This document shows, piece after piece, positions 6,177-49,685 of a stretch of 64,000 nt of DNA; position 1 is the first letter of the stretch; the number at the start of each line of letters is the position of its first letter. The notes under the pieces were generated by a model that saw nothing but the letters and a program-made list of their open reading frames with translations, was not told where the DNA came from and made no database searches. A program made the translations under genes and the position numbers. Source of the DNA: Methanocaldococcus sp. 28A (GTDB taxonomy: Archaea; AGJL01; Methanococci; Methanococcales; Methanocaldococcaceae). The DNA lies in assembly GCA_049852185.1 (NCBI GenBank), contig CP187540.1; one strand, 5' to 3'.

Positions 6177-6824
6177 TTATTTATACCGCACCGATCTGAT
6201 TTTAATAGGATATACTCCAAGCAGAAGTATAAGTTTCCATACCGAATCGGTCTTATTTTAATAAAAAAAGGAGGATATGTTGGGAAATTAAAAATGGAGT
6301 TTCCATACCGAATCGGTCTTATTTTAATTGAAATCAAAAAAAGGCATATATGAATATGATAAATTGATTTAGTTTCCATACCGAATCGGTCTTATTTTAA
6401 TAGTTTTTGATTTACCTTTACCACTCTTACCATACAATATTGTTTCCATACCGAATCGGTCTTATTTTAATGGTCTTATTTTAATTTAGCAGATAACAAT
6501 TTAAGCACCGCATACAACAGTTTCCATACCGAATCGGTCTTATTTTAATATTGCCAGAAAAACAACCGCCGTTTTTGAGTAATTATTTGTTTCCATACCG
6601 AATCGGTCTTATTTTAATAATCCATTAATATACATATTTTTTATTAAATCTTTACAGTTTCCATACCGAATCGGTCTTATTTTAATGAAGAAGTATTTAA
6701 ACAAACATTAAACACTGCAGGGGCATAGTTTCCATACCGAATCGGTCTTATTTTAATTAGCAATTTAGTAACTATAAAAAACACTGATTTAGTGGTTTCC
6801 ATACCGGATCGGTCTTATTTTAAT
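6177..6824 (-). CRISPR. CRISPR array, 10 repeats of 30 bp and 9 spacers
   Basis: GTTTCCATACCGAATCGGTCTTATTTTAAT at 6233, 6299, 6372, 6442, 6520, 6589, 6657, 6728 and 6795 (one mismatch), plus a degenerate copy at 6177. Spacers are 26-43 nt. The minus-strand repeat ends in GAAAC and the degenerate copy is distal, so transcription is leftward. Confidence 0.97.
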
Positions 6825-10020: not shown

Positions 10021-10533
10021 ATGATAGTTCGAACTAAGATAGTTCAGATAAAAGATTATTTCATAGGGATGGTATTTAAAGATAATCAATTAGTTAGGAA
10101 TACAATCCCTCTAAGAAGAGAAGAGTTATTTAAATTTTTCAATGGAGAGATTAGTAGGGAGTGTAAATATTTAAGAGTGGCAGAAATTATATTAAAACTA
10201 TATCTTGGAAAAATGAATGATAAAGAAGCAAGAAAATTAATAGATTACAAATTAGAAGTCTCAGAATTTACAAAAAAGGTTTTAGATGTCGTTAAAGATA
10301 TAGAATTTGGAGAGGTATTAACTTATGGAGATATAGCCAAAAAAATAAACACTTCACCAAGAGCTGTTGGAAGGGCACTAAAAGCTAATCCTTTACCTTT
10401 AATAATCCCTTGCCATAGAGTTGTTGCTAAAAATTCTTTAGGCGGATATTTTTATGGTGTAGATAAGAAAAAATTTATCTTAGAGATGGAAAAAATTAGA
10501 AAAAATAGAAAAATAATAAAAAATAAACAGTAA
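10021..10533 (+). CDS. ogt: Methylated-DNA--protein-cysteine methyltransferase
   Basis: RAVG...NPLPLIIPCHRVV active site. Confidence 0.93.
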   Translation: MIVRTKIVQIKDYFIGMVFKDNQLVRNTIPLRREELFKFFNGEISRECKYLRVAEIILKLYLGKMNDKEARKLIDYKLEVSEFTKKVLDVVKDIEFGEVLTYGDIAKKINTSPRAVGRALKANPLPLIIPCHRVVAKNSLGGYFYGVDKKKFILEMEKIRKNRKIIKNKQ

Positions 10534-10542
10534 AAAATAACA

Positions 10543-10893
10543 GGGGTCTGTCCAATATGGACAAATATAGACAAACGTCCATATTGGACTTGGGCGTCAT
10601 CAGCCTCATCTCCCTCTGGGTTCATCGGGAGCATATCATTGGTCTCCGCCCCTGTCATGGACATAAAAACCGTAAGGTTTTTAAGTTCTCGTCGCTTCGC
10701 TCCGAGAGAACCCCAGCTCCTCCCATCAATTAATATTCGATAATAACTGCCACTCTTGGGACTCCATTTTACTCCCGCATCTGGGGCAGTTATAATCCTC
10801 ATTTCTTATATATACCCACATATAAATCTTTCGGTAATGAAAATCTATAAATGTCTATATTTGTCTATGGAAAATTAAACAGTTCCAAACGGC
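10543..10893 (-). mobile_element. Non-autonomous IS607/TnpB-derived cassette, copy 1
   Basis: GC-rich ~350 bp unit repeated at 49341-49665. It has no terminal IR, GG at both ends on the plus strand, and inverted subterminal TGTCTATATTTGTC motifs. A residual zinc-finger reading YNCPRCGSKM is followed by a multi-hairpin region. Confidence 0.65.
10545..10727 (-). ncRNA. Putative omegaRNA / HgcC-like structured RNA
   Basis: High-GC island with hairpins GTTCTC..GAGAAC, TAAAAACC-TTAC-GGTTTTTA and GTCCAATATGGAC..GTCCATATTGGAC. Covariation is seen against copy 2. Boundaries are approximate. Confidence 0.6.
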
Positions 10894-10897
10894 AATT

Positions 10898-11011
10898 TAT
10901 AGTTGTGTGCAAAATAAAATAAACTTTTATAAGGACAATTTGAATGCCTTCCATAATGAAGGCATTCACTAATTCCTTATTTTATTTAAAAAACTTTTGC
11001 ACACAACTATA
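10898..11011. repeat. Palindromic repeat family A copy
   Basis: Perfect 17-bp TIR TATAGTTGTGTGCAAAA, internal GAATGCCTTC-CATAAT-GAAGGCATTC. Confidence 0.92.
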
Positions 11012-11027
11012 ATTAATTAGTGGGAAC

Positions 11028-28736: not shown

Positions 28737-28808
28737 GCCGTTTGAAACAGATTAATTTTTCATAAACAGATATAGACATTTATAGATTTTCATTACAGAA
28801 AGATTCAT
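28737..28808 (+). mobile_element. Isolated left end of the IS607-like cassette
   Basis: GCCGTTTGAAACAGATTAATTTTTCATAAACAGATATAGACATTTATAGATTTTCATTACAGAAAGATT closely matches the reverse complement of 10822-10893. Confidence 0.75.
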
Positions 28809-28916
28809 AGCTGTGTGCAAAACTATCTTAAATAAAATAAGGTATTAATGAATGCCTTCCATAAAGAAGGCTTTCAAATTTTCCTATTTAAAGTTTAGTT
28901 TATTTGTACAAAGCTA
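28806..28916. repeat. Palindromic repeat family A copy
   Basis: Ends CATAGCTGTGTGCAAAA...TTTGTACAAAGCTA, internal GAATGCCTTC-N6-GAAGGCTTTC. Confidence 0.85.
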
Positions 28917-49254: not shown

Positions 49255-49685
49255 TCTTGTAATAGGAAAGTTGAACGGATAAATAAAGAGGTTGAATATC
49301 GATTAGATAGATTTAATAGTTTAGAAGAGTTCAGTCGTTTGGGGTCTGTCCAACATTGACAATTATAGACAAATGTCCACGTTGGACTTGGGCGTCATCA
49401 ACCCTCTGGGTTCATTGGCTTAGGTCTCTGCCCCTGTCATGGACATAAAAACCGTAAGGTTTTTAAGTTCTCGTCGCTTCGCTCCGAGAGAACCCCAACT
49501 CCTCCCATTGGGTAAATCCGAATAATAAATGCCCCTCTTGACCCCTAATTCTCTCCCGCATCTGGGGCAGTTATAATTTCTATTTCTTATATATACTCAT
49601 ATTTGGTAATGAAAATCTATAAATGTGTATATTTGTCTATGAAAAATTAAACAGTTTCAAACGGCATAATTTTCGGGATACTACA
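49255..49685 (+). mobile_element. IS481-family 3' remnant hosting the IS607-like cassette
   Basis: KVERINKEVEYRLDRFNSLEEF precedes the cassette. ATAATTTTCGGGATACTACA follows it and resembles the inverse of the 34295 end. Confidence 0.55.
49341..49665 (-). mobile_element. Non-autonomous IS607/TnpB-derived cassette, copy 2
   Basis: Colinear with 10543-10893, with short internal deletions and an identical central double-hairpin block. Confidence 0.65.

Follow-up and report, generated by a model that had tools for sequence, protein, structure and literature searches.

The window analysed here, a stretch of 64,000 nucleotides from contig CP187540.1 of Methanocaldococcus sp. 28A (GCA_049852185.1), contains a repeated unit (copy 1, 10543-10892) that is probably a protein-free deletion derivative of the IS607 elements (tnpA plus tnpB) of this methanogen order, which would be moved by TnpA in trans and would give rise to an omegaRNA for a TnpB encoded elsewhere. 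The unit retains the subterminal repeats of its parents, a module that is constrained as RNA, and a TATA-like box at a fixed distance from a hairpin termed P0. All of the features listed in the original prediction are found on the minus strand, namely the CC dinucleotides at the junctions, the repeats, the transcription factor B recognition element and TATA box (BRE/TATA), the tnpB relic, the GC-rich hairpins and the terminal hairpin, and their positions are collected in Table 1.

A BLAST search of the whole genome (1.556 Mb in two contigs, C1 and C2, with 29.7% G+C) with the unit returns 36 matches at E ≤ 0.001, which correspond to eight near-complete loci, several truncated or decayed copies, other fragments and solo left ends; the genome-wide copy number that had been left as a check is thus eight near-complete copies plus fragments. 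The segments 10543-10893 and 49341-49665, which had been proposed as two complete copies, align end to end on the minus strand with 82% identity (E 4.8e-97), far beyond chance, and the proposed left end at 28737-28808 on the plus strand aligns with the initial 72 nt or so of the unit. The copy at C1:957095 is 99% identical to copy 1 and lies in a different flank, which indicates recent movement.

The predicted derivation from an IS607-type element is supported by parents with the same ends in the genus and by tnpB-only elements with the same ends in this genome. A search for an autonomous parent identifies serine recombinase genes in relatives: a Resolvase match is present in 8 of 17 genomes of the genus (this one being counted among the 17), and the gene lies directly upstream of tnpB in G007:C2, G011:C66, G002, G005 and G016, the last as a fragment. 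The tnpB genes beside it are 58-66% identical to the resident tnpB. The transposase of G007:C2 (212 aa) contains a MerR-type helix-turn-helix and a Resolvase domain and scores 244.7 bits against NF033518 transpos_IS607 (cut-off 110). In G007:C2 and G011:C66, the two genomes in which the ends were read (tnpA-tnpB adjacency alone was seen in the other three), the parents start with GCCTT(C)CGAAACTG...ATAGACAAATATAGACA and finish with ...TGTC(T/C)AT...GGGAAGACCCC, as in the unit, and the left-end repeats of copy 1 recur at the left end of the tnpA-bearing elements of relatives. Of the parental sequence, the unit no longer has any of tnpA or the part of tnpB from near its start to the first CPxCG, in agreement with the near-total coding deletion that had been proposed; about 100 nt after the zinc finger and about 40 nt in the loop of the terminal hairpin P4 are missing as well.

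Two full-length tnpB genes (Pfam OrfB_IS605 and Cas12f1-like_TNB) reside in the genome, neither of them in an element with a transposase gene. The tnpB-only element at C1:1519091-1520553 carries the left end of the unit, both of its TATA-like boxes and its right end, and the one at C1:632367-633626 carries the right end, with the left end replaced. The unit is therefore a derivative and not an autonomous member of the family, since it has no conserved open reading frame (ORF) and the genome has no intact transposase. In the tnpB genes themselves, the open frame traverses the RNA scaffold and stops about 35 nt short of the right end (L052:1288-2595, L043, L050 and, in this genome, G000:C1:1519091-1520434), and the protein has a conserved tail, GGVGVP..GAEVDD.LPNEPRGEL..M.PNPNV..VY.V(D/N)LNGKYL. 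The frame survives insertions in the P4 loop, and the same bases therefore appear to serve both protein and RNA.

The boundaries and the mode of insertion of copy 1 are revealed by an empty site in the closest relative (G014), in which both flanks are found at 97% identity and just 5 nt apart. The relative reads ...AATAACA GG C AATTTAATTAATTAG..., and the window reads ...AATAACA GG[GGTCTG...CAAAC]GG C AATTTA, after which a second small element follows. Because the empty site holds a single GG, the insertion amounts to a net 348 bp at that dinucleotide, which reads CC on the sense strand of the element; the occupied site has GG on either side with nothing more duplicated, and the termini are not inverted. 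Copy 1 thus entered a (T/A)GCC target as double-stranded DNA, at a single CC/GG and with no further duplication. The CC junctions had been placed correctly, whereas the outermost base that had been assigned to copy 1 (10893) is a target-derived G and not part of the element; by analogy, 49665 and 28737 are probably target-derived as well. G precedes the CC in all 22 copies with an intact left end, and the next base outward is T in 16, A in five and C in one. Additionally, a paralogue of the left flank of the copy at C1:957095, 100% identical to it, reads through TTGCC at the point at which the left end of that copy starts.

No empty site was found for copy 2, whose left flank is not conserved in five loci of relatives (G014, G001, G012, G007 and G002), or for C1:957095, for which relatives have the two flanks at separate places. 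The latter locus is adjacent to a 1.2-kb stretch that is duplicated at 100% identity (C1:955894-957097 and 1092142-1093345), and the duplicate stops precisely at the left-end junction of the unit. This edge and the separate regions to which the flanks map place the unit at a rearrangement or duplication breakpoint.

The subterminal repeats are arranged as three at the left end, with 10-bp spacing, and two inverted repeats at the right end. In a unit of G036, the repeats of both ends are altered together, with GTGAGT/ACTCAC instead of TAGACA/TGTCTA, which is what binding sites that co-evolve with their transposase would look like. The unit is not a classical miniature inverted-repeat transposable element, since its ends are not inverted repeats and nothing beyond the crossover core is duplicated, and the term fits only loosely, in the sense of miniature and non-autonomous. 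An origin from Y1/IS605 elements, or membership of the palindrome-associated transposable elements (PATEs), whose subterminal hairpin ends are bound by a Y1 transposase and which insert 3′ of a tetra- or pentanucleotide, was likewise rejected: the ends match those of serine-recombinase elements, and the single Y1 tnpA of the genome lies beside an unrelated tnpB.

The structured RNA that the unit was predicted to keep overlaps the 3′ end of tnpB in the parents and extends to the right end; in relatives that have a tnpB, this module occupies the final 130-220 nt as far as the terminal GACCCC. Single-sequence folds reveal a common architecture in units and parents. Helix P1 is formed by GGGGU(C/U) (GGGGUU in copy 1) and the terminal GACCCC, an asymmetric loop lies between P3 and P3′, P3b is the stem under the loop AAUGAACCCAGA, and P4 is formed around the right-end repeats. 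In the conserved loop between P3 and P3′, AGA lies opposite GAUGAN, which on a reading of the sequence resembles the layout of a kink-turn (K-turn), in which a C-stem, a 3-nt bulge, tandem sheared G·A pairs and an NC-stem are expected; an Rfam C/D-box match on the unit reaches 13.7 bits, far below the threshold of 55.

Covariation was analysed in 19 sequences, comprising 13 units, five IS607 elements and one tnpB-only element. RNAalifold predicts 32 pairs, 12 of which have changes on both sides, and 97.7% of the 596 cells are paired. None of 500 shuffles matched the alignment in percentage paired, covarying pairs, covarying cells or covariation score, and seven matched it in further pair types, whereas slid controls give 31-55% paired cells and 0-3 covarying pairs. 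The shuffle tests are inflated by the kinship of the sequences; the slid controls and the counts per helix (compensatory changes at three of four pairs in P3′ and six of 11 in P4, helix 5) agree with them in direction. The count excludes six copies that contain a 47-nt insert, since MAFFT had aligned this wrongly, at the 5′ end; the two of these copies whose folds were examined, the window copies, still form P1, a P3-like stem and P4. The insert sits at a single spot of the scaffold (about 49443-49488 in copy 2). It is present in some units of this genome (G000) and of G016, as well as in one of the resident tnpB elements, in which it shifts the C-terminal frame, and is absent from the other resident tnpB element, the IS607 parents and most copies in relatives; hairpins that resemble it (GAAGCGAAGCUUC) occur within expansions of the P4 loop.

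A second structured segment, P0, corresponds to the relic of the tnpB zinc finger, in which YNCPRCGSKMESQ aligns with CPxCGSKMESQEGQ of the full-length protein. The outer stem reads CUGCCCC/GGGGCAG, AUGCCUC/GAGGCAU and CCCACU/AGUGGG in three subfamilies and CCUGUCC/GGACAGG inside tnpB. In an alignment of 29 rows, from which six of 35 had been dropped (two decayed G006 copies and four near-duplicate tnpB rows), four of the seven predicted pairs show compensatory changes, and the second subfamily (B) has lost the CPxCG reading and kept the hairpin. The covariation of P0 and the loss of CPxCG in subfamily B indicate that the relic is kept as RNA structure and not as a coding remnant.

The promoter-like box that had been noted behind the left end is retained, and it may function as a promoter. 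An octamer, [TA]T[AG]TATA[ATC], starts 23-28 nt upstream of P0 in 21 of the 24 copies with a recognisable P0, and the other three carry obvious deletions or interruptions. The spacer between octamer and P0 has diverged among subfamilies, while the distance is fixed. The CCGAAAGATTTATAT box lies 12 nt further upstream, and both boxes align with those upstream of tnpB in the tnpB-only element. With the usual archaeal spacing, transcription would begin at the base of P0. The BRE/TATA had been claimed for both complete copies, which holds for copy 1 but not for copy 2, in which the first box was removed by an 8-bp deletion and the second is kept.

At the other end, the flank letters quoted in the original prediction are indeed the bases right after the right-end CC. 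In copy 1, this flank runs antisense to the end of ORF 10021-10533 that holds the stop codon. To include a guide, an omegaRNA would have to extend by about 16 nt or more into the flank. A run of five T within 16 nt of the junction is found in only one of 26 flanks, and the sequence therefore does not forbid read-through into the flank.

Related sequence recurs in the relatives of this archaeon, and BLAST detects it in 12 of the 17 genomes of the genus. A covariance model, R1, was built from P3-P4 (102 positions and 25 pairs, with P1 and P0 outside the model). It gives 14 matches in this genome at E ≤ 0.01, one of which is the opposite strand of a copy, and across the class it matches 20 of 40 genomes, in four of five genera, at E ≤ 0.001. 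The highest number of matches, 42, is found in G039. This genome has four intact IS607 tnpA genes, and about 1.8 kb downstream of each lies a parent-type scaffold match; a unit of G039 has the same order as here (G|CC, left-end repeats, TATA, P0, module, GACCCC). G036 has 12 matches, and of its two tnpA genes one contains a stop. G039 and G036 represent other genera of the class with this kind of unit.

These results are best accommodated by a mechanism in which TnpA supplied in trans would move the unit. The TATA-like box would drive a transcript that consists of P0, a linker and the P1-P4 scaffold and runs into the flank; this RNA would be an omegaRNA, loaded by a TnpB encoded elsewhere. The TnpB-RNA complex would then recognise the vacated site (a GCC-type motif plus the flank), which would lead to retention or homing of the element, and self would be spared because the occupied site has CCC before the flank and the vacated site GCC. 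It is plausible that a TnpB would use the unit RNA in trans. TnpA in trans excises a mini IS607 element that is devoid of both genes, and TnpB in trans acts on the RNA of that element (10.1101/2023.11.20.567912); the same work poses the question of retention for other transposases. A role in retention has been proposed for IS605 elements and their PATEs, which often encode omegaRNAs that need TnpB in trans (Meers et al., 10.1101/2023.03.14.532601). A guide that equals the unit's own flank fits transposon homing or retention, not the free-ranging targeting by dispersed guides.

Several observations weigh against this explanation. The search of this genome for Resolvase-domain genes finds none, and tblastn detects only a 24-residue remnant of the N-terminus of tnpA (C1:1012424-1012495), so that the units in this genome are probably stranded for now. 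The remnant is part of a composite (C1:1012424-1012650) in which its 24 codons are fused to a scaffold fragment, with an extra left end nested at GAC G|CC inside the scaffold. The resident tnpB scaffolds have a short hairpin instead of P3b and about 170 nt extra inside P4, and one of the two is without the 47-nt insert; cognate loading is therefore uncertain. The lost segments between P0 and the module (about 100 nt) and in the P4 loop (about 40 nt) might matter for binding. Part of the conservation of P4 could serve recognition at the DNA level, since this hairpin encloses the transposase repeats. The promoter, the read-through and the guide role are inferred from the sequence, and a run of six T that begins 5 nt past the junction of copy 1, unique among the 26 flanks, could shorten its guide.

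A further difficulty lies in the catalytic motif of TnpB. Typical TnpBs contain a DRDxN motif in RuvC-III, and D361 is presumably a catalytic residue of ISDra2 TnpB. In the present family, the motif is (D/N)RQ, with R and Q invariant in 24 of 24 members and with D or N before RQ (N, giving NRQ, in the resident copies). When the family is aligned to ISDra2 TnpB with phmmer, no gap interrupts the stretch between the second CxxC and the NI of the RuvC-III helix, and Q falls under the second Asp of HDRDENAALNI. Because an invariant Q replaces the second Asp of DRDxN, nuclease activity of this TnpB is unproven. The ISDra2 paper, in the text available, names only D191 and E278 as residues, and several archaeal TnpB branches, including a serine-recombinase branch, are described as having rearranged catalytic sites and as being thought still active (PMC10691335, in part). 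Members of the family come from Methanocaldococcus, Methanotorris, Thermococcus (at about 55% identity), Thermofilum and an Asgard metagenome-assembled genome, among others (including L052, L043 and P0005-P0120).

Finally, no Rfam family, HgcC included, matches the unit. The proposed membership of HgcC is not borne out: RF00062 matches neither unit nor parents, and its best match in the whole genome (24.8 bits, cut-off 50) lies away from both. In the Rfam covariance search that had been suggested as a check, the window yields only tRNA and CRISPR repeats at the gathering score, and the unit yields four chance-level matches at E ≤ 10; no Rfam family matches the flank of another unit copy. In our own reading, the unit RNA would represent a different omegaRNA family, and the HgcC miss is not a refutation. 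A weak RF00062 match (14.1 bits, E 0.59, C1:829308-829377) is located just 3′ of the different tnpB beside the sole Y1 tnpA, and an HgcC-like RNA may belong to the Y1-associated element family.

It has also to be considered that the unit is an inert relic, just a transposase substrate whose hairpins are carried along near the ends that TnpA needs and whose RNA has no function. In favour of a relic, the subterminal repeats to which TnpA of IS607 binds are multiple and spread over long segments of the ends (PMC6188088, in part), 60-bp left and right ends suffice in the mini IS607 element (10.1101/2023.11.20.567912), the right-end repeats lie within P4, several copies in this genome are decayed or truncated, and the genome has no transposase. 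Nevertheless, compensatory changes are found far from the repeats, in P3, P3′ and P0 (100-250 nt from the right end), the P0 hairpin survives the loss of coding sense, and the distance between the TATA-like box and P0 is constant across diverged subfamilies. Moreover, were about 60 bp per end enough, the approximately 180 nt between them would decay freely. This explanation is considered unlikely.

Another explanation, which we judge distinctly unlikely, accepts a functional RNA and gives it another role, as a K-turn/L7Ae ribonucleoprotein, as a decoy or regulator of TnpA or TnpB expression, as an antisense RNA that extends into adjacent genes, or as a binding guide for a non-cutting TnpB. The P3/P3′ asymmetric loop has a K-turn layout as read from its sequence, orfB-related RNAs of Pyrococcus abyssi bind L7Ae (PMC3124441, in part), over-expression of a haloarchaeal PATE RNA altered growth (PMC4615843, in part), a copy 1 transcript would read antisense into the 3′ end of ORF 10021-10533, and the TnpB family is without the canonical RuvC-III Asp. 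Against these points, the same module ends every tnpB of the family at the transposon boundary, the position that defines an omegaRNA, conserved rearranged catalytic sites are taken to imply retained nuclease activity (PMC10691335), and no target is apparent besides the unit's own flank.

A bolder idea, improbable as it stands, is that the units are self-promoted mobile guide-RNA genes and that the TnpB with Gln in RuvC-III is an RNA-guided DNA binder or an unusual nuclease, with each unit programming its own flank. If this were true, dozens of units (up to 42 scaffold matches per genome) would exert control over neighbouring genes or transposase access rather than cut-and-repair homing, and the trimmed P0, linker and P1-P4 with its K-turn would be a minimal scaffold that works in trans. 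Finally, an ATG-started open frame of 116 aa (ORF 10452-10802, minus strand) spans copy 1, but a small protein is hardly credible and was rejected, since copy 2 has no ORF of at least 50 aa over the unit, the indels between the copies are not multiples of three, and stop codons are simply scarce in the GC-rich RNA region.

Compared with known systems, the IS607 deletion derivative proposed here shares with IS607, IS1535, ISXfa1 and CboIStron the absence of terminal inverted repeats, the exchange at a 2-bp core without target duplication and subterminal repeats at both ends. IS607 elements are described as exchanging at a 2-bp core with a preference for (G)GG, without duplication and with multiple subterminal repeats (PMC6188088; PMC10711439); their right-end RNA (reRNA) extends past the boundary, and the transposon-adjacent motif GGG contains the GG crossover (PMC10711439, in part). 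The unit likewise prefers an extra G beside the core, and its tnpB-linked RNA ends at the right end. In contrast to that family, the unit encodes no protein, the tnpB frame of its parents runs through the RNA scaffold almost to the right end, and the core is CC and the target GCC in the tnpB sense, whereas the papers give GG and GGG in their own strand convention. Like the PATEs of the IS200/IS605 family, as these are described in the sources cited, the unit is protein-free and multi-copy, keeps ends and a guide scaffold, and would need TnpA and TnpB in trans. It differs from them in its presumed movement by a serine recombinase as double-stranded DNA instead of by a Y1 HUH enzyme on single-stranded hairpin ends, and in its internal TATA-like box at a fixed distance and its trimmed scaffold.

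Two groups of archaeal RNAs are also comparable. In Pyrococcus abyssi, repeated loci with BRE/TATA give rise to expressed RNAs that correspond, in sense orientation, to the 3′ end of an IS607-like orfB (PMC3124441, in part). Like the unit RNA, these RNAs (sRk48, sRk52, sRkB and sRkC; Phok et al. 2011) are GC-rich, and the hyperthermophile in which their repeated, intergenic loci lie is AT-rich; the orfB that they match at its 3′ end is IS607-like or IS605-like, and some have L7Ae-bound K-turns. The likeness is one of description, not of sequence, and the accessible part of that text calls them neither mobile units with defined ends nor guides. HgcC (RF00062) and the haloarchaeal sense overlapping transcripts (sotRNAs) are, similarly, archaeal RNAs tied to the 3′ end of tnpB (PMC4615843, in part), although RF00062 itself has no match here. 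In the literature searched, which did not extend to subscription journals and supplements, no description was found of natural protein-free IS607 derivatives with a guide scaffold, or of any in methanogens.

Table 1. Positions of the unit copies and their parts in the window, followed by the near-complete units on genome contig C1.
Feature	Position	Strand	Remarks and basis
Copy 1, non-autonomous IS607-derived unit	10543..10892	-	Includes the GG/CC crossover dinucleotide at 10543-10544 and 10891-10892
Left-end subterminal repeats ATAGACA/ATAGACA/ATAGATT, 10-bp spacing	10843..10869	-	Presumed TnpA binding sites
BRE/TATA CCGAAAGATTTATAT	10820-10834	-	Predicted promoter box
Second TATA-like box TATATATAA	10807-10815	-	24 nt upstream of P0; predicted promoter box
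Hairpin P0, zinc-finger coding relic of tnpB (CPRCGSKMESQ)	10747..10789	-	Alignment with tnpB
3′ RNA module (P1, P3/P3′, P3b, P4), GC-rich multi-hairpin	10543..10723	-	Folds, covariation, R1 109.4 bits; homologous to the tnpB-3′/right-end region of IS607 parents
Insert of about 47 nt in the module, two hairpins (GCGAAGC mini-hairpin and AAAAACC..GGUUUUU)	10662..10707	-	Alignments
Terminal hairpin P4, right end, enclosing inverted repeats TGTCTAT/TGTCCAT	10550..10589	-	Sequence, fold, covariation
Copy 1 flank, candidate guide UGUUAUUUUUUACUGUUUAU	10523..10542	-	Putative guide, would need read-through
Copy 2	49341..49664	-	P3b shortened; R1 69.6 bits
Copy 2, second TATA box	~49587-49597	-	
Copy 2, P0	~49530-49570	-	
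Copy 2, 3′ module	49341-49505	-	
Copy 2 flank, guide-equivalent AAACGACUGAACUCUUCUAA	49321..49340	-	Predicted
Copy 3, solo left end (CC, repeats, first box)	28738..28808	+	Then broken by an unrelated small palindromic element
Near-complete unit	C1:1226543		Window copy 1
Near-complete unit	C1:957095		Outside the window
Near-complete unit	C1:1265341		Window copy 2
Further near-complete units	C1:638519, 1512830, 889501, 1425769, 1197679		

The window contains other repeated sequences. A second, unrelated miniature element, palindromic and 116 bp long, is located at 10897-11012 and again at 28810-28905. It has the termini TAGTTGTGTGCAAAA...TTTTGCACACAACTA and an inner hairpin GAATGCCTTC...GAAGGCATTC, and it is flanked by a TA duplication, the empty site in the closest relative reading AATTTAATTAA. 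BLAST gives 205 high-scoring segment pairs for it in the genome, 151 of them near full length, which corresponds to roughly 100 loci because the pairs count both strands. This element lies directly beside copy 1, breaks into copy 3 and has taken the place of the left end in the unit at C1:1512830. Additionally, a CRISPR array with nine repeats matching Rfam CRISPR-DR13 lies 3.7 kb from copy 1 (6233-6824, minus strand). On contig C2 (10,393 bases), weak matches to the left-end region of the unit and to scaffold-coding tnpB occur three times with a period of 3,896 bases, and the contig therefore looks like three tandem copies of a sequence of about 3.9 kb.

The unit is a known kind of element, a protein-free carrier of a TnpB guide scaffold, here in a new archaeal form associated with a serine recombinase. 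The family provides a clean, datable insertion with an empty site. It also represents a natural trimming experiment on the omegaRNA scaffold, which reveals the helices that survive without the protein, and a test bed for homing by TnpB in trans on archaeal serine-recombinase elements. Additionally, the unit accounts for GC-rich, orphan RNA-like islands in AT-rich hyperthermophile genomes, and it provides a link to the older reports of expressed, orfB-related and K-turn-bearing RNAs in Thermococcales.

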